This document shows positions 18,551 through 25,787 of a stretch of DNA of 64,000 nucleotides, piece by piece. Origin of the DNA: Terriglobia bacterium (GTDB lineage Bacteria > Acidobacteriota > Terriglobia > JAJPHL01 > JAPKYU01); NCBI GenBank assembly GCA_965206645.1, contig CBDBKE010000001.1, positions 32,001 to 96,000 of the forward strand. The letters are read 5' to 3'. The notes under the pieces are model-generated. The model was given only the letters and a program-made list of their open reading frames with translations. It was not told where the DNA came from and did no database searches. Positions within the stretch are counted from its first letter, which is position 1. Every line of letters begins with the position of its first letter. The translations under genes and the position numbers were made by a program.

Positions 18551-20377
18551 TCAAGCCTCCCTACTGTTCCGCCAATTGCGCAGCCTGGCAACCAACGCCT
18601 TGAGGGTCAGGCGCAACAGTTGCCACCAAGCGGGCCGCCGGGCGCGAGTGAGTTCACCAGCCAGATAAAGACGGCGACAGGCATCGCGGCGCAGCTTGCC
18701 ACTGGGGGTCTTGGGAATGGTCTGGGGTGGGACCAACACCAGTTTGTCGGGCGGATGGCCCAGACGGGCCAGTCGGCGCATGATTTCGGCGCGCACCTCA
18801 GCCCGCGGACCCGGACGAGTCTCGCGAGTCTCGGCCACCAGCACAATCCGCTCGGTGCCGTGTTCGGGGTCGGTGACGGCAAAGGCAGCAACACACCCTT
18901 TTCGCACGCCCCTGACTTCGCTGGCCACTTCTTCAAGCTCCTGGGGGTAGATGTTGTGGCCGGCCTTAATGATGACGTCCTTGATGCGCCCGGTGATGTG
19001 CAGTTCGCCGTCGGCTAGGTAGGCCAGGTCTCCTGAATCGAGCCATCTATTAACCAGGCCATCACCCAGGCCATCGCACCGGATGGCCTGGGTTGCGTCC
19101 GGGTTGCGGTAGTAGCCGCGCATGGCCGAGGGTCCCTGGAATTGCAGTCGCCCCTCCACCCTCTCCGGCACGGGTTGGCCGACGGCGTCAACGATGCGGG
19201 CTTCGTGGCCGGGCAAGGGTTGGCCTACGGAGACAAAACGCAGCGGCGCCGGATCGCGGGCATCGCTGGGCACGGCCCGTTGCTGCCGGACGAACGGCTC
19301 TCGCTGGATGGCATCGACACGCGGCGGGCGTCCCAGAGGCGAAAAACTGAGAGCCACGGCGCATTCGGCCAGCCCGTACACCGGCATCAGGGCTTCCGGC
19401 CGGAACCCGTACGGGGCAAAGCGGGCCGTGAACCGCGCCAGGGTCTCGGGGCTGATGGGCTCGGCGCCGTTCATGGCCACGCGCCACGAGCTGAGGTCGA
19501 GTCCGTCCAGCGCCCGGTCGTCCACCCTGCGCACGCACATCTCATAAGCGAAGTTGGGCGCTGGCGACAGCGTGCCGCGGTGCTCATGGATCATCTGCAG
19601 CCAGCGTTGCGGCCGGCGCAAGAAAGCGATCGGCGAGGTGACGGCGACGGGCAGGCCGTAATAAAGGCAAAAGAGCCAGCAGCCGATCAGCCCCATGTCG
19701 TGATACAGCGGAAGCCAGCAGACGCCGACGTCGTCCGGACGCACCTCGACGCCCTGGCCGATGGCGCGCACATTGCTGAGGACGTTGGCATGGGTCAGCA
19801 CCACACCTTTTGGCTCCCCGGTGCTGCCGGAGGTGTACTGGATAAGGGCGATGTCGGTGGGCTGCAAGGCGTTTCGGGACGGCTTGGCTGTTGCCGCGGC
19901 CAGCGCCTCCACCGTGGTAACGCTACGCAGGCTGGGAATACTTGGCCCGAGCAGTCGTGCCAGAGTGCGCGCTTCCCGGACGGTGATCAGCACTCGGGCT
20001 TCGGCATTGCGCAACAGTTTCGTTTGACGCTGCACGTACTCCTCGATCCGATCGGCCCGCACCGGCGGGTAGATCGGCACTGGAATCCCTCCGGCCAAAG
20101 TCACTCCCAGAAACGCGAAGAAGAAGTCTGGGCTGGTTGGCAACATCAGGGCCACGGTCTGGGCCTGCTCGAGTCCCTGGGCAAGCAGTCCTCCGGCTAC
20201 CTCCGAGGCGGCACTCAGCAGTTCGCCGTAGCTGATCGTGCGCAGCCGGCCGTCGTCCTGCCGCAGATGGATGTGAGCGCGGTCAGGTGTCGCCTGGGCC
20301 CGGGCGCGAAGCACCTCGTCCAATGTCTCAACCGCTACTGCCGGCGCTGTCGCCGCTCCTGTGGCAGCTGTTCTCAT
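18551..20377 (-). CDS. Fatty acyl-AMP ligase (FAAL-type adenylation enzyme)
   Basis: QYTSGSTGEPKGV, WLPLYHDMGLIG, PNFAY, YGLAE, DSGDL, GRIKD, PKTPSGK. Confidence 0.9.
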   Translation of the reverse strand: MRTAATGAATAPAVAVETLDEVLRARAQATPDRAHIHLRQDDGRLRTISYGELLSAASEVAGGLLAQGLEQAQTVALMLPTSPDFFFAFLGVTLAGGIPVPIYPPVRADRIEEYVQRQTKLLRNAEARVLITVREARTLARLLGPSIPSLRSVTTVEALAAATAKPSRNALQPTDIALIQYTSGSTGEPKGVVLTHANVLSNVRAIGQGVEVRPDDVGVCWLPLYHDMGLIGCWLFCLYYGLPVAVTSPIAFLRRPQRWLQMIHEHRGTLSPAPNFAYEMCVRRVDDRALDGLDLSSWRVAMNGAEPISPETLARFTARFAPYGFRPEALMPVYGLAECAVALSFSPLGRPPRVDAIQREPFVRQQRAVPSDARDPAPLRFVSVGQPLPGHEARIVDAVGQPVPERVEGRLQFQGPSAMRGYYRNPDATQAIRCDGLGDGLVNRWLDSGDLAYLADGELHITGRIKDVIIKAGHNIYPQELEEVASEVRGVRKGCVAAFAVTDPEHGTERIVLVAETRETRPGPRAEVRAEIMRRLARLGHPPDKLVLVPPQTIPKTPSGKLRRDACRRLYLAGELTRARRPAWWQLLRLTLKALVARLRNWRNSREA

Positions 20378-20669
20378 CGTGACATGATCGAATAACTGTT
20401 AAATGTTAGGGCTGAAGGCGAAAGGTTTCAAGGCCCAACGCAGCTGCGTAGTGGGTCAATCTACGGTAAGGGCGTTACACATCCAGTGAGCGGCGTAGCA
20501 GCATCGGCAAATTACTAGCCGACTTGTGGGGACCTATCCACTGAATCTGAGGTAAGCGTCTTGTACTCAAAAACTTGGACTGACGCAAAGCAGGCTACTG
20601 CACGCCGATGGTGATGGATAAGAAGACGTCACACGTTTTCCATCCGGGGTCCAGGTGGCCTGGAGTGGC

Positions 20670-21686
20670 CTATTCGTCTGGGACGATGCAAACGGTATCC
20701 TCACCACGGATGGGGATACCGTCAAAGGTTTCCGCCTCTAACACCGCAACTGATTGGCCCACCTCGATCATGAACTGTGCAGTGTGGACCTGGCAGACCA
20801 GATCAATTAGCCCATTCCCATTGACGTCCTCTTCATGGCAGAGGAACTTATCGCTCGTGCCCACCATTTTGATGCTGGCCCCTGCAAGAGCAATGGTGTC
20901 CAGATCGACCTCCTCGGGCGCATTGAAATTCGGCGTGCTTAGAATCGCCACAGGGATCACGCCAGCGGAGCCGAGGTCGATGCTATTGGGATCGCTACCC
21001 GGCTTGATGTCGATGGTCACGGTCAAGGCCCCAAACTTGAATTGGGTCACGAGTCCCTGGGTGTCATTATCACCAGTTGTTGCATTAACACTATCGGGGC
21101 CACCAGGAAACAGACGAGAAACCCCATCCGCTCCCTAGGAATGCACATCAAAAAAAGTTGTGAAGACGGGCGAAAAGTTTCTCACATCGAGCAACAGGTT
21201 GCCCTGAGCCTTGTCATAAAGGAATGGAGTCGTCAAGTTTACCAGGATATCAAAATCTTTTGGCCCTCCGGTAGGTCCTGTGAAGGAACTAGAAAGGGCA
21301 AGGGCGCCATTAAAGGCCACGGTATTGTCGGCCCCGACGTTATTTGCAAGCGTAGTGTCTAATCCGTCCACTGGCAGTGTCGTTGTGGACAGGTCGATTT
21401 GAATGTTCGGGATCGTCGAGGAGAACGCGATACCAAAGGTCGCATCAGGGCGAAAGCCAAGCTGCGTGATAAGAATAGGACCCGCAGGAAACTCGGAGCT
21501 GCTGTAAACTTGCTGATAGCGCATCGAAATCCAGAACAGGCTAAATGGAATAGCGTTATTACTATTGCCCTCTACCGTCGCCAGGGAATTGGGGACAACG
21601 ATAGGCTCAGCCTGCGCTACCCCCGAGAGCAGACCTAGCACGAGAATCCAAACAAAAACTCCTAACCTGCTCCGCCGGAATTTCAT
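20670..21686 (-). pseudogene. Secreted two-domain protein interrupted by a single in-frame TAG (21135-21137)
   Basis: Signal peptide, IVVPNSLATVEGNSNN...RYQQVY domain, DVHS*GADGVSR continuing in frame into TIDIKPGSDPNSI...IPVAILS domain. Confidence 0.75.
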
Positions 21687-21744
21687 CTATTTCCCCTTTC
21701 TGGGTTTGCCGCTTCCTTCCAAAGCCAGCTAGCCCGGCCAAGCC

Positions 21745-21822
21745 GAGGTTTCCCAGGTTATAGGCAATGATGGTCAGCCACAGTCGCACCTCGTTGGACC
21801 GGGACCGATGACAAGTCAGCAT
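21745..21822 (-). pseudogene. IS1380-family transposase C-terminal remnant
   Basis: LTCHRSRSNEVRLWLTIIAYNLGNL resembles the SCHRF.ANE.RL....AYNL motif. Confidence 0.7.
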
Positions 21823-22009
21823 ACGACGCCGGCCAGGAGCGTTGTCAGTAGGGCAAAAGTCTTATTAGCACCATAGGGACTTCTTCTGGATAGCATCGCG
21901 GCTCGCTTGCTCTGTTCCGCTGACTGGTCTGCTCTGTTCCTGCCTCCCGCCTCGGATAGGTCCCCAGAAACGGGCTAGCGTTTATCAATCCCGTTTCAGT
22001 TGTGCCATA

Positions 22010-22229
22010 TAGTCGGCTTATCGGAAACTGACCCATTATCCGCAACTGCGGCCCTGGACTATAATCAGCTGGGGATGCAGGTTAGCGAGATTTTCTTCTC
22101 CATTCAGGAAGAACCCACCTTTGCCGGCGCGCCCTGCGTGTTCGCGCGGCTCACCGCATGCAACCTGCGCTGCTCCTGGTGCGATACGGAGTACGCCTTT
22201 TACGACGGCCAGCTCATGAAGCTGGACGA
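22010..22229 (+). repeat. Direct repeat copy 1 (IR end, promoter and queE 5' end); copy 2 at 25081-25300
   Basis: 220 bp gapless alignment, 19 mismatches by manual count. Confidence 0.95.
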
Positions 22230-22248
22230 CGGCATAGGAAAACACTAA
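22075..22248 (+). pseudogene. queE: Truncated decayed copy of queE 5' end
   Basis: MQVSEIFFSIQEEPTFAG...CNLRCSWCDT, with QGE mutated to QEE; stops after 57 codons. Confidence 0.9.
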
Positions 22249-22508: not shown

Positions 22509-22832
22509 ATGTTCCACAGCGTAATGCGGTGGGCATTTGCGGGGGTCTTCTTCGCCACAGCCTCCTGTGCTCAGGTCTGTTCGGAGATTGGTTTGCAAGG
22601 GCAGTCCGCGTCTGCTTGCTCGCATGAGCAGTCAGGGAAAGAGCAGCCGGGAGACAATCAGTGCAAAGCTTGCATGCAAGGGCACTTTTTCCAAGAATCA
22701 AAGGTGAAGATGGATTGTCCGACCGGGACATCATTGGAGCCGGCGGATAGCATCACTGCGCTTCTCGCGCCGGCGAGGAAGTTACCCGCCAACGAACCCG
22801 CGTTATTCACGCCTCTCGTCTTGCGCATTTAG
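22509..22832 (+). CDS. Small secreted Cys/His-rich protein, candidate metal-responsive leader
   Basis: Signal-like N-terminus, CAQVC, CSH, CKACMQGH, Pro-rich tail ending PLVLRI. Confidence 0.7.
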   Translation: MFHSVMRWAFAGVFFATASCAQVCSEIGLQGQSASACSHEQSGKEQPGDNQCKACMQGHFFQESKVKMDCPTGTSLEPADSITALLAPARKLPANEPALFTPLVLRI

Positions 22833-22931: not shown

Positions 22932-23918
22932 ATGACTCTTCTGTATGCAGATCATCTGGATCAAGCGGGTTCCTTCGCGCGTCATCGGCCTCCGCGGCAG
23001 CGCCTAATCCTGCTGGCGTTTCTCGCGGCTGGAATAGCGCCCTGCGCGTTCTCGCAAGGACCGATGCCGGAAGAAGGAGCTACCCTGTTCCCGAGCGGCG
23101 CGTTCATTTCCTACAGTTCGATCTTTACGACGGGCAGGTTCGAACCGGGCACAGACTCGGATACCCCCGGAGCGAGAACCCGTCCCACTTTCCAGCACGA
23201 GGTCCCGCTCACCTTCAGCATGTCCTTACGCCGGGACGTCCAATTCACCGCCGTTGTGCCGATCGTGACGAAGCGGGTGAAGTTGCCCGATACCGAATTC
23301 GGCGGTACGGGGCTGGGAGACGCCCTGGTATCGCTGAAGTACCGTTTCCTCCGGCGGGATTCGGAGCGCGGCACTACGCAAGCGGCCGTGACCGTTGGCC
23401 CCAAGCTGCCGACGGGAGCAACCGGCCAGCGGGATTCCCAAGGCAGCCTGCTGCCCATTCAACTCCAGCCGGGCTCTGGCTCGACCGATTTTTTCGTCAA
23501 GGTAAACGGCACCCACACGGGTCTTTTCAATCTTCGTCGCCTCGTTGCGGATGCTTCCTTTAGCTATTTGTTTCGAACGGAAGGAAGCCGGGATACCCGG
23601 CTCGGAAACGCGATGGTAGCGCGCCTTTGGTTGCCTTACCGCCCGTACCAAGCCAAAACTCTGGGGGCTGAATGGTTCCTCGGTCCCTCTCTGACCTGGC
23701 AGCATCGGGATCGAGACCGGCAGTCAGGCGTCCGGCAGCTTTTTACGGGGGGAGACTCCCTGACTCTGGGATTCACATCGTACGTGAGCCCCGTGGAAGG
23801 GTTGGTTTTCTGGGTCGGCCTGGAGTTTCCAATCTACCAAAACAGCAATGGGGCGCCGCATGAGCTGTCGCGACGGATCAATGTGGGCGTGACCAAACAA
23901 TTCGTTCTGCGTCCCTGA
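22932..23918 (+). CDS. Outer-membrane beta-barrel 'transporter' (Phenol_MetA_deg-like)
   Basis: Signal peptide; GLGD...LKYRF, KLPTG, QPGSGSTD; amphipathic strands; SD GGAGGAG. Confidence 0.75.
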   Translation: MTLLYADHLDQAGSFARHRPPRQRLILLAFLAAGIAPCAFSQGPMPEEGATLFPSGAFISYSSIFTTGRFEPGTDSDTPGARTRPTFQHEVPLTFSMSLRRDVQFTAVVPIVTKRVKLPDTEFGGTGLGDALVSLKYRFLRRDSERGTTQAAVTVGPKLPTGATGQRDSQGSLLPIQLQPGSGSTDFFVKVNGTHTGLFNLRRLVADASFSYLFRTEGSRDTRLGNAMVARLWLPYRPYQAKTLGAEWFLGPSLTWQHRDRDRQSGVRQLFTGGDSLTLGFTSYVSPVEGLVFWVGLEFPIYQNSNGAPHELSRRINVGVTKQFVLRP

Positions 23919-23942
23919 GGATGCAGGTACAGGAGGCAAACA

Positions 23943-24476
23943 ATGAAACGGAAGAGTTTCCTTTGGGCTGTGATGCTCGTGAGCGCTTGGATCCCGGCCC
24001 TATCCGCCGGAATTGACCGCGTGGAAATGCGCGTGCAAGGGATGACCTGAAATTTCTGAGCCTACGGGGTGCAACAGCACCTTCAACGCCTGGATGGCGT
24101 TGCGAAAGCCGAAGTCAGTTTGCTCGACGGGCGTGTTACTGTTTTTCCCAAGCCAGGCGCCGCGCTCGATCCCTCTCGAATTTTGAAGGCCGCTTACGAC
24201 AGCGGGGTCTCCGTTGTAGAAATGGAAATGACAGCCTCCGGGTCCTTGCAGGACTCGGGGCAAGGCCTGGTTTTCCGCCCGACCTCGCAGCAGTCGTTCG
24301 CGGTCAACCCCAATGCGCTCACGGAGAAATTTAAGCCTCTGGGAAGCTCCGGCCGGGACGTTTCGATCCGGGCGCGGCTTTACCAGGCTCCCCCCGGCGG
24401 GGCGAAATCAAAGGATCCTCCGAAGGGCCTGAAGCCGGCGAAGGACCTGAAGCTGGAAGTCCTGGAGATCCACTAG
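23943..24476 (+). CDS. Periplasmic HMA-domain protein with two in-frame UGA codons (putative UxxU selenoprotein), 177 aa
   Basis: SD AGGAGG; MKRKSFLWAVMLVSAWIPALSA-GIDRVEMRVQGMT*NF*AYGVQQHLQRLDGVAKAEVSL; TGA at 24048 and 24057 occupy both Cys positions of GMTCxxC. Confidence 0.85.
24060..24108 (+). promoter_or_regulatory. Candidate SECIS element(s): two tandem hairpins after the UGAs
   Basis: GGGGTGC-AACA-GCACCTT (24066-24083) and CAACGCC-TGGAT-GGCGTTG (24084-24102). Confidence 0.55.
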
Positions 24477-24488
24477 GAGAGTTGCCCC

Positions 24489-25025
24489 ATGGCGGTTGCA
24501 AAGATGCTCGTCCTTCTTCTGCCTGCCTTCCTGTTGCAGCTTGCCTTCGCTGCATGCAGCCGGTCCCCTCCCTCCCCGCAATTGGGGCACGGCACGATGA
24601 ATATGGAAATTCAGCCCAAAGAGCTATCGCGCCTACCCTCGTTCGCATTCAAGGACCTCTCGGGGCATGTAGTTTCTTCGGATCAGTTTTCCGGAAAGGT
24701 GCTACTCGTGGATGTCTGGGCCACTTGGTGCCCGCCCTGCAAGCAGGAGATGCCGTGGTTCCAGGAGCTTTACGAACAGTACCGCGACCAGGGACTCGAA
24801 GTGATCGGGATTTCCATTGACCCGAATCCTGCCGATGCCCGCCGATTTACCCAGGAACTCGGAATCACCTACACGCTGCTTCACCATCCCGAGGTAATGC
24901 AGGAATGGGGGTTGCTGGGCCTCCCGACGACCCTCGTCGTGGACCGCGAGGGAAGCATCCGCGGGAAGATTGTGGGTTTTGATTACAAGGAAACGTTCGA
25001 AGCGGCTTTGAAGGAGTTGCTCTAG
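24489..25025 (+). CDS. TlpA-family thiol-disulfide reductase, lipoprotein
   Basis: Lipobox-like FAAC; VWATWCPPCKQEMP; GLPTT. Confidence 0.9.
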   Translation: MAVAKMLVLLLPAFLLQLAFAACSRSPPSPQLGHGTMNMEIQPKELSRLPSFAFKDLSGHVVSSDQFSGKVLLVDVWATWCPPCKQEMPWFQELYEQYRDQGLEVIGISIDPNPADARRFTQELGITYTLLHHPEVMQEWGLLGLPTTLVVDREGSIRGKIVGFDYKETFEAALKELL

Positions 25026-25080
25026 ATCGGTGGTAGCGACAATTCTGTTCTGAACTAGTTGGCAATTTCAGTTGGACGAG

Positions 25081-25300
25081 TAGTCGGCTTACCGGAAACT
25101 GAGCCGTTATCCGCAACGGCGGCCCTGGGCTATAATCAGCTTGGGATGCAGGTTGCCGAGATTTTCTTCTCCATCCAGGGAGAATCCACCTTTGCCGGCG
25201 AGCCCTGCGTGTTCGTGCGGCTCACCGCGTGCAACCTGCGCTGCTCCTGGTGCGACACCGAGTACGCTTTTTACGACGGCCAGCCCATGGAGCTGGACGA
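25081..25300 (+). repeat. Direct repeat copy 2 (degenerate IR end, TATAAT and intact queE start)
   Basis: Matches 22010-22229. Confidence 0.95.
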
Positions 25301-25787
25301 GGTGCTCCGTCGGGTGAGCACCTATCCGGCGCGACTGGTGGAAATCACCGGCGGCGAGCCCATGCTTCAGGAGGGAGAAGTGCTGCCCCTGATGGCGCGC
25401 CTGCTGGAGCAGGGCTACCGGGTGCTGCTGGAAACCAGCGGGGAACGCTTCCTGGGCCGGGTCCCGCCCGAGGTCGTCAAGGTGATGGACGTCAAGTGCC
25501 CCGGCTCGGGCGAAGCGGAAAAATTCTGCTTCGAGAATCTGCAAGTACTGTCACCAAGTGACGAAGTGAAATTCGTGCTGGCGGACCGTCCCGATTACGA
25601 GTTCGCTTGCCAGTTCCTCCAGCGTCACGGGTTATGCGGCAAAGTGCGGGCCGTGATCTTCTCGCCGGTCTTCGGGCAACTGGAGCCACGCCAGCTCGCC
25701 GAATGGATCCTGGCCGATGGCTTAGACGTTCGCCTCGGACTCCAATTGCACAAATTCATCTGGGACCCGGCGATGCGGGGAGTTTAA
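25146..25787 (+). CDS. queE: 7-carboxy-7-deazaguanine synthase (radical SAM)
   Basis: EIFFSIQGE, CNLRCSWCDT, ITGGEP, LQLHKFIW; adjacent to queC. Confidence 0.93.
   Translation: MQVAEIFFSIQGESTFAGEPCVFVRLTACNLRCSWCDTEYAFYDGQPMELDEVLRRVSTYPARLVEITGGEPMLQEGEVLPLMARLLEQGYRVLLETSGERFLGRVPPEVVKVMDVKCPGSGEAEKFCFENLQVLSPSDEVKFVLADRPDYEFACQFLQRHGLCGKVRAVIFSPVFGQLEPRQLAEWILADGLDVRLGLQLHKFIWDPAMRGV

Follow-up and report, generated by a model that had tools for sequence, protein, structure and literature searches.

Two in-frame UGA codons at the metal-ligand positions of a secreted HMA-domain protein from an acidobacterium: a candidate UxxU selenoprotein with a second, OB-like domain

The window analyzed here is a stretch of 64,000 nucleotides from a Terriglobia bacterium (contig CBDBKE010000001.1 of assembly GCA_965206645.1). 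At 23943-24476 of its forward strand lies what is very probably a real gene, encoding a secreted metal-binding protein in which both ligand cysteines (Cys) of an HMA domain are replaced by selenocysteine (Sec, U). Our overall reading, to which we give a probability of about 0.8, is that the gene encodes a UxxU protein made by SelB/tRNA-Sec recoding of two UGA codons, exported, and able to bind a soft metal by means of an HMA domain followed by an OB-like domain. We infer Sec at both UGAs from the conservation of these codons, from the recoding machinery of the genome and from the constraint on the RNA that follows them.

The translated frame reads MKRKSFLWAVMLVSAWIPALSA, then, past the predicted signal peptide cleavage site, GIDRVEMRVQGMT-U-NF-U-AYGVQQHLQRLDGV... 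The two TGAs, 9 nt apart, are the sole in-frame stops before the final TAG, so that the claim of a first-pass annotation that the frame bears no other lesion was correct. They lie within the motif RVQGMT-U-NF-U-AYGV (codons GMT-TGA-AAT-TTC-TGA-AYG). The strong Shine-Dalgarno sequence, the ATG, the signal peptide and the stretch RVQGMT-TGA-AAT-TTC-TGA-AYGV are also found as that annotation had described them, over 23931-24476. With Cys substituted for U, residues 29-82 pass the Pfam HMA model (PF00403; 35.3 bits for a cut-off of 24.8). A listing of open reading frames (ORFs) under translation table 11 yields only a 135-aa piece of this protein, starting at the GTG at 24069. No Shine-Dalgarno sequence is present upstream of this GTG; the Shine-Dalgarno sequence and ATG of the gene lie at 23931-23945.

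To follow the two codons in other genomes we scanned genomes, one for each species, and obtained 153 relatives of the gene. The best 80 were kept, almost all from metagenome-assembled genomes of Acidobacteriota; removal of L105, which is cut by its contig end, left 79 orthologous loci in which the motif can be read. TGA is found at both positions in 75 of these 79 loci, TGC/TGA in three (L065, L072 and L112) and TGT/TGC in one (L116), i.e. 75 UxxU, three CxxU and one CxxC at the same codons. Among 82 related sequences, down to ~30% protein identity, TGA occupies both positions in 78. Such retention excludes a chance origin of the two TGAs, and agrees with the earlier argument that two independent nonsense mutations hitting exactly the two ligand positions are improbable. 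Examples among the genomes of 60 relatives are a 57%-identical ortholog from another family of the same class (MT-TGA-AAC-TTC-TGA, in G057) and a ~30%-identical paralog from the same genus (MV-TGA-CCG-CTT-TGA, in G001).

In a quick maximum-likelihood tree, rooted solely by the long branch of L017 or by midpoint, the four Cys-bearing forms make up one clade (Shimodaira-Hasegawa-like approximate likelihood ratio test, 100) nested among the UxxU forms. This suggests that the Cys-bearing orthologs arose by secondary replacement of Sec by Cys. In the same tree three loci (L049, L101 and L104) are nested among Acidobacteriota although their bins bear the labels Binatus, Limnocylindrales and Dormiibacterota, which reflects either a binning error or a recent transfer.

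More distant paralogs with the same two domains carry UxxC (L018-L021 and L023), U-x4-C (L027) or CxxC (L022 and L029). A TGA stop ends six of the nine paralogs. These paralogs represent a wider superfamily of secreted proteins in the same class, with an HMA domain, a beta-barrel and one Sec or none (relatives G025, G017, G033, G041, G014, G049, G010 and G058). On a short contig, L026 (G006:C66:89-436, minus strand) displays an HMA-like frame, ..AGYLCGF-TGA-VF.., with a further TGA later; it could be a CxxU form or a broken gene.

The codons that precede the first UGA (UGA1) were analyzed in an alignment of 81 sequences, comprising the window gene, L016 and the 79 loci (L017 was left out). Thr35, the residue just before UGA1, is invariant in 81/81 sequences and is encoded by four different codons (ACC 29, ACT 28, ACG 15, ACA 9). 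Residues are thus kept through synonymous change, which shows that the segment upstream of UGA1 is coding. Contigs from four further public runs (three studies, near-identical strains), which match the gene at an identity of at least 99%, keep both TGAs unchanged. Four differences occur within the gene across these runs (23960, 24146, 24155 and 24332), all at third positions and synonymous. Independent assemblies, together with these contigs, show TGA and neither TGC nor TGT.

In the protein database 38 entries of the family were found. They are 127-138 aa long and cover 62-76% of the query. The first is the truncated ORF of the window itself, and the start of the 37 others is the V/M43 codon, the first start codon past the second UGA (UGA2). 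That standard gene callers truncate the protein had been anticipated: all 38 entries begin at codon 43, and this truncation is a systematic gene-calling artefact.

The genome that carries the window (4 contigs, 4.41 Mb, completeness 97.9%) has the complete set of selA, selB, selC and selD, the four genes by which the proposal could be checked; Sec recoding is available to the cell. selA scores 441 bits in a profile search; selB is a 649-aa frame with a SelB-wing_3 match of 72.8 bits. The single tRNA-Sec gene scores 78.5 bits with the Rfam model (cut-off 47), and ARAGORN gives its anticodon as TCA. selD (354 bits; G000:C2:761488-762411, plus strand, locus L011) has one in-frame TGA and is itself probably a selenoprotein gene. 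A second HMA selenoprotein gene was noticed in this genome (G000:C2:228261-228446, minus strand; 1457-1769 of locus L035). It is single-domain with a signal peptide, its motif is GMT-TGA-AAC-GCC-TGC (UxxC), it scores 63.9 bits with NCBIfam NF041115, below the cut-off of 95, and its UGA is followed at 23 nt by a hairpin (7 bp, GUC loop).

TGA otherwise remains a stop in this genome. Release factor RF2 is present (494.8 bits, cut-off 370). Of the 50 tRNA genes listed by ARAGORN, tRNA-Sec is the only one with a TCA anticodon, the single tRNA-Trp has CCA, and the two tRNA-Cys(GCA) genes have the usual size of 75 nt. Typing of the eight best Rfam tRNA-Sec matches, which rank above six weaker ones, gave this tRNA-Sec and otherwise tRNAs for Ser, Leu, Trp and Gly. 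As a crude proxy for genome-wide stop usage, TGA ends 634 of the 1443 open frames of at least 400 codons. The first-pass annotation had rejected a change of the genetic code on the ground that many neighbouring genes end in TGA. Its conclusion stands on the basis of RF2 and tRNA-Trp, but its premise is thinner than stated: only two of the six flanking ORFs checked end in TGA (18551-20377 and 22932-23918), the other four in TAG or TAA.

Downstream of the UGAs, synonymous variation collapses at codons 42-54 (24066-24104) of the 81-sequence alignment. The codons used there are GGG in 71 and GGT in 10 sequences, GTG in 80/81, CAC in 73/73, CGC in 81/81, CAG in 79/79, TCT in 71/71, GGC in 80/81, GTT in 74/81 and CAA in 68/69. 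Outside this segment the four- to six-fold codons have entropies mostly of 1.1-1.9 bits. Two hairpins, H1 and H2, can be drawn here, and this two-hairpin structure has 95.6% of cells paired vs 31-53% in slid controls. H2 is the best candidate for a selenocysteine insertion sequence (SECIS). It is predicted by RNAalifold, 98.8% of its cells are paired, the pair at its base is exchanged between G-C and C-G (70 vs 7) and the next varies between G-U, A-U and G-C. The loop of H2 is 31 nt past UGA2 and 40 nt past UGA1. The bacterial SECIS (bSECIS) model in PMC13188914 has a loop of 3-9 nt, a stem of 4-16 bp, a G within the first two nucleotides of the loop and a minimum free energy of at most -7.5 kcal/mol, with most elements spaced 16-37 nt from the UGA. 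Relative to UGA2, H2 lies within these bounds, with a 5-nt N-G-[G/U]-N-N loop, 7 bp, 31 nt and -10.7 kcal/mol.

H1 is not claimed as a SECIS: in the strict six-pair register the outer pair fails in 20/82 sequences and a second pair in 10/82, and RNAalifold favours another register with an internal loop. In the paralog L017, two compensatory double changes (GUG/CAC to GCC/GGC) preserve H1.

The comparison with paralogs bears on whether both UGAs depend on the same element. A CGCC-UGGAN-GGCG hairpin is found in five UxxC paralogs (21-25% protein identity), 40 nt past their only UGA, and is missing in both CxxC paralogs examined. Thus one hairpin of the H2 type may serve both UGAs, and the 40-nt spacing is apparently usable. 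A different hairpin was seen ~18 nt past the UGA of the UxxC paralog L023; none is present in L029, a CxxC member of the same subfamily.

The structure of the protein was modelled with AlphaFold2 from an alignment of 65 rows (the window protein, 55 orthologs retained by an 88%-identity filter with L046 left out, and 9 paralogs). The full model has a mean predicted local distance difference test (pLDDT) of 87.0 and a predicted template modelling score of 0.80. The signal-peptide region forms a low-confidence helix (residues 4-14), and a hydrophobic N-terminal leader is also present in orthologs. Residues 23 to ~92 adopt an HMA fold (strands 23-32, 53-59, 64-69 and from 90 on; helices 37-48 and 77-86), with the ligand loop just before helix 1. 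Its structural matches include CopZ (6ff2_A; template modelling score, TM, 0.91; root-mean-square deviation, rmsd, 1.5 Å) and MerP (1osd_A, TM 0.83; 1afi, TM 0.74), and ATP7B/Atx1-type domains match as well. There are 26 PDB matches at E <=1e-3, and each of those listed is an HMA domain or a protein with such a domain. CCS, the human SOD1 copper chaperone (6fp6), appeared in the top hits, but a kinship with it was rejected: the rmsd is 8-9 Å and only the HMA domain is matched.

Profile searches place the HMA part among metal binders. The best NCBIfam match is NF041115, UxxU_metal_bind (E 6.5e-12; 45.4 bits for a cut-off of 95, over positions 1-50 of the 74 of the model; 32.9 bits when searched against the DNA). 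The CopZ models NF047957 and NF033795 give 41.9 and 41.2 bits (E ~1e-10) below cut-offs of 85 and 91, and MerP TIGR02052 gives 32.1 bits below 92.55. The C-terminal barrel has the topology b1-b2-b3-helix-b4-b5 with a disordered Lys-rich loop. Modelled alone it reaches a pLDDT of 79.4, and its OB-fold matches are weak (E >=0.038, TM <=0.58). The structure search gave no solved relative of this domain at E <=1e-3, and the Pfam search gave no match to it. It contains no conserved Cys, His or Met; G100 is the only invariant residue past the HMA domain.

The gene sits in a conserved neighbourhood (Table 1). The gene for a 328-aa barrel-like protein is directly upstream in 79/82 loci and that for a TlpA-like lipoprotein directly downstream in 80/82; the exceptions, for either gene, comprise among others the paralog L017 and loci that end with their contig, such as L045. 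The 328-aa protein has no NCBIfam match and no Pfam match even at E up to 10, PF13557 included. A feature-similarity lead from the Atlas (score 0.99) goes to clusters from Acidobacteriota where PF13557 (Phenol_MetA_deg, an outer-membrane-barrel family) is carried by 11-24% of the members. The TlpA-like protein passes the Pfam models AhpC-TSA (85.7 bits) and Redoxin (83.7 bits), also matches Thioredoxin_8, and remains below the NCBIfam cut-offs for ResA (99.8 vs 170 bits) and TlpA (85.1 vs 230 bits). W-C-x-P-C is invariant in 39/39 sequences of this protein, which has a lipoprotein-type leader.

In the main clade, a secreted Cys/His/Met-rich protein of ~118 aa is encoded before the barrel gene in 55 of the 62 loci of at least 6 kb. 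That of L037 (1606-1962) reads ..QCCxSMPCSSHGHHGQDCCKTM.., ends in PLRI and belongs to no Pfam family. The window has a Cys-rich ORF at the same position; no significant similarity between the two was detected (E = 0.45; a second search gave no hit). No Pfam match was found for the ORFs 20608-21138 and 21135-21686, and no mer gene was found among the neighbours examined by Pfam and NCBIfam scans.

A direct repeat brackets this cassette. Its left copy lies in a queE-like fragment (22000-22248) with 83% amino acid identity to the intact gene at 25059-25787, and a weak DDE transposase remnant lies nearby (21607-21822, minus strand; PF13701, E 0.0024, below cut-off). The repeat and the remnant suggest that the cassette was acquired or inserted by recombination. 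Such an acquisition fits its scattered occurrence within the genus, where G001 alone among three congeners has a comparable UxxU gene, apparently a paralog.

Table 1. Coordinates in the window of the candidate selenoprotein gene, its parts, the downstream hairpins and the surrounding features.
Feature	Coordinates	Strand	Basis or remarks
Full coding sequence, candidate HMA(UxxU)+OB-like selenoprotein	23943-24476	+	177 codons + TAG (24474-24476); orthologs, codon-level conservation
Shine-Dalgarno sequence AGGAGG	23931-23936	+	ATG (23943) 6 nt further on; read from the sequence
Predicted Sec-type signal peptide: MKRK, hydrophobic core, cleavage between ALSA and G	23943-24008	+	Putative cleavage site, judged from the sequence
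HMA domain, ferredoxin-like beta-alpha-beta-beta-alpha-beta, ligand loop GMT-U-N-F-U	24009-24218	+	Pfam PF00403; pLDDT 93-98
UGA1, in-frame TGA at codon 36, probable Sec codon	24048-24050	+	TGC/TGT there in 4/79 orthologs
UGA2, in-frame TGA at codon 39, probable Sec codon	24057-24059	+	TGC there in 1/79 orthologs
C-terminal five-stranded beta-barrel, OB-fold topology, Lys-rich low-confidence loop	24219-24473	+	Structure models; invariant columns
Hairpin H1, GGGGUGC-AACA-GCACCUU	24066-24083	+	-9.2 kcal/mol; loop 22 nt past UGA1, 13 nt past UGA2
Hairpin H2, best SECIS candidate, CAACGCC-UGGAU-GGCGUUG	24084-24102 (loop 24091-24095)	+	7 bp, -10.7 kcal/mol
Upstream gene, 328 aa, secreted, outer-membrane beta-barrel-like	22932-23918	+	TGA end 24 nt before the selenoprotein ATG
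Downstream gene, 178 aa, TlpA/ResA-like thioredoxin-fold lipoprotein, WCPPC	24489-25025	+	Starts 12 nt past the TAG
Secreted Cys-rich ORF of 107 aa ending in LRI, possibly a fourth gene of the cassette	22509-22832	+	Same position as the ~118-aa protein
Direct repeat, left copy, 220 nt, truncated queE-like 5' fragment	22010-22229	+	91% identical to 25081-25300
Direct repeat, right copy, in intact queE-like radical SAM gene 25059-25787	25081-25300	+	Repeat comparison

The mechanism that we propose would run as follows. The mRNA would be read through at both UGAs by SelB/tRNA-Sec, each giving Sec, under the guidance of an RNA structure within the coding sequence, H2 and possibly H1 with it; a single hairpin could serve both UGAs. 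The signal peptide would export the product to the periplasm, where its two selenolates may bind a soft metal ion, e.g. Cu(I) or Hg(II), like the two Cys of CopZ and MerP. The adjacent TlpA-like lipoprotein might keep the Sec pair reduced in this oxidizing compartment, the upstream barrel-like protein might let the metal cross the outer membrane in one direction or the other, and the OB-like domain could act as a docking module.

Several points weigh against this scheme. Reduction of a diselenide is harder than that of a disulfide, which weakens the idea of TlpA as the reductase. The distance from UGA1 to the loop of H2, 40 nt, is outside the consensus of 16-37 nt. H1 is ambiguous in register (91.9% of cells paired) and its loop (AACA; AAACAA in most orthologs) has no G at the first two positions. 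The folding energy of the single sequence is unremarkable (z = -0.58 and -1.70), and it is for this reason that we rely on the comparative RNA evidence. Because H2 coincides in part with a conserved peptide of the HMA domain, R-L/Q-x-G-V, its conservation is partly at the protein level, and it is on the synonymous sites that the argument depends. In L116, the only CxxC ortholog, both hairpins are intact, so that within the family the Sec and Cys forms do not differ in this RNA structure. Two of the four public runs are metatranscriptome libraries, and one contig spans 23600-24844, which is no proof of transcription or of a single transcript. Finally, two successive recodings should cost yield; an efficiency of 30-40% per UGA is given for E. 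coli in PMC4513850.

Among the alternatives, one keeps both Sec residues but takes the pair as a redox centre, i.e. a selenol/diselenide relay working with the TlpA-like reductase, with the HMA fold a mere scaffold. It is favoured by the constant partner gene, which encodes a thioredoxin-fold protein, and by MerP, which can form an oxidized disulfide (title of 1osd). Most predicted bacterial UxxC/CxxU selenoproteins are in addition thiol-type oxidoreductases according to PMC2398784 and PMC13188914, and UxxU is reported in Prx-like oxidoreductases. We nevertheless consider this explanation unlikely because the GMT-x-x-x-x loop and the fold are close to those of metal chaperones (CopZ and MerP in the structure comparison), because the best family matches, NF041115, CopZ and MerP, are all metal binders, and because the Cys/His/Met-rich secreted protein of the main clade and the outer-membrane channel-like gene suit metal traffic.

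Another alternative is a recoding in which Cys is inserted at one UGA or at the two of them, through a SelC*-type tRNA (tRNA-ReC) via SelB or as Cys/Sec mixtures at low selenium; the site would then be CxxC, CxxU or UxxC. Cys is indeed tolerated at both positions, in 4/79 orthologs, and in PMC13582414 tRNA-ReC-like genes are commoner in genomes with UXXU hydrogenases (~56% vs 2.3%) and Cys is proposed at either or both UGAs. Against it, the lone tRNA with a TCA anticodon among the 50 is tRNA-Sec, both tRNA-Cys are of normal length, and no tRNA-ReC is found among the eight best Rfam tRNA-Sec matches. Moreover TGC or TGT would be cheaper, yet TGA/TGA is kept in 75/79 orthologs. We regard the Cys decoding as quite improbable.

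That the sequence is a dead HMA gene with two nonsense mutations, yielding at most the 135-aa ORF from the GTG at 24069, has hardly any probability left. The short ORF has a start codon and is what all 38 database entries annotate. But the two TGAs are shared by 78/82 sequences to ~30% protein identity, the residues before them are kept by synonymous change (as is the case for the single-nucleotide difference at 23960), and a Shine-Dalgarno sequence precedes the ATG and not the GTG. Neither the signal peptide nor strand 1 nor the ligand loop would be part of the 135-aa piece, and the fold is predicted with pLDDT above 90 only as a whole. A genome-wide use of TGA as a sense codon (a code 4- or 25-like), for which nothing speaks beyond the open frame itself, is excluded because RF2 is present, tRNA-Trp has CCA, the TCA anticodon occurs only in tRNA-Sec, TGA ends many long frames and the directly upstream gene, and paralogs in relatives end in TGA while carrying an in-frame TGA at a Cys position.

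The two-Sec metal-binding reading may be compared with known systems. NF041115 shares the HMA-type fold with both ligand Cys replaced by Sec in the metal loop; its model is however a single small domain (74 positions), unlike the present protein with its signal peptide, OB-like second domain and fixed neighbourhood. MerP (TIGR02052) likewise has a signal peptide and a periplasmic HMA domain with a GMTCxxC-type loop, but here Sec stands for Cys, a domain is added and mer genes are missing from the neighbours examined. Copper chaperones of the CopZ/Atx1 type share the fold and ligand loop and differ in being cytoplasmic, single-domain and Cys-based. For the partner gene, TlpA of Bradyrhizobium offers a parallel: it is a membrane-tethered periplasmic thioredoxin-fold reductase whose copper-chaperone clients, ScoI and PCuAC, are periplasmic metal-handling proteins with a CxxxC/CxxC site. 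The neighbour here scores under the TlpA equivalog cut-off, and its putative client is an HMA selenoprotein. Group 4 [NiFeSe] hydrogenases with UXXU (PMC13582414) and UxxU Prx-like oxidoreductases (PMC2398784, PMC13188914), as described in these sources, also have two UGAs separated by two sense codons at a metal- or redox-active CxxC site, followed by one conserved SECIS-like region, and raise the same question of dual-UGA decoding; their folds and functions are unrelated to those of the HMA protein.

The first-pass annotation had proposed a double-Sec metal-binding site. The identity of the two residues is supported by the conservation of the codons and by the Sec genes, but the site was less unprecedented than it implied. 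A selenoprotein list in PMC9312934 includes a "Putative mercuric reductase" (PRK13748) with UxxU, and one in PMC2398784 includes UxxU Prx-like proteins along with a MerP selenoprotein and a cation-transporting ATPase that contains Sec. "UxxU" is absent from the main text of PMC1976440, where "mercuric" occurs only within "putative mercuric transport protein". As a kind, then, a UxxU HMA site is not new, being already present in reviews and in NCBIfam NF041115. Our search of the literature on the HMA+OB two-domain family and on HMA or Acidobacteriota selenoproteins, with most subscription papers and all supplements outside it, found no description. The new element is a separate family of secreted two-domain proteins, encoded in a fixed neighbourhood and present in at least 153 genome records.

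A broader picture, which we put forward only tentatively, would make the cassette a hitherto unannotated envelope module for metal handling in soil Acidobacteriota. Its members would be an outer-membrane channel, an HMA-OB chaperone with a bis-selenolate site, a TlpA-like reductase dedicated to the module and, as far as the main clade is concerned, the Cys/His-rich protein; both Sec would perhaps be inserted by a tandem two-hairpin signal or by one SECIS of unusually long range (31-40 nt). If so, the chaperone would be a natural test case for the reloading of SelB on closely spaced UGAs, and for the advantage of a Se-Se over an S-S metal site in an oxidizing compartment.

The family is mis-annotated as a fragment of 127-138 aa in 38/38 of the database entries found; with correct gene calls, soil selenoproteomes would gain a frequent selenoprotein. 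The UxxU, CxxU and CxxC orthologs, together with the UxxC paralogs that have a common hairpin, form a natural series which could reveal the decoding of two UGAs at a distance of 9 nt and the reason for the preference for selenium at a metal site in the periplasm.

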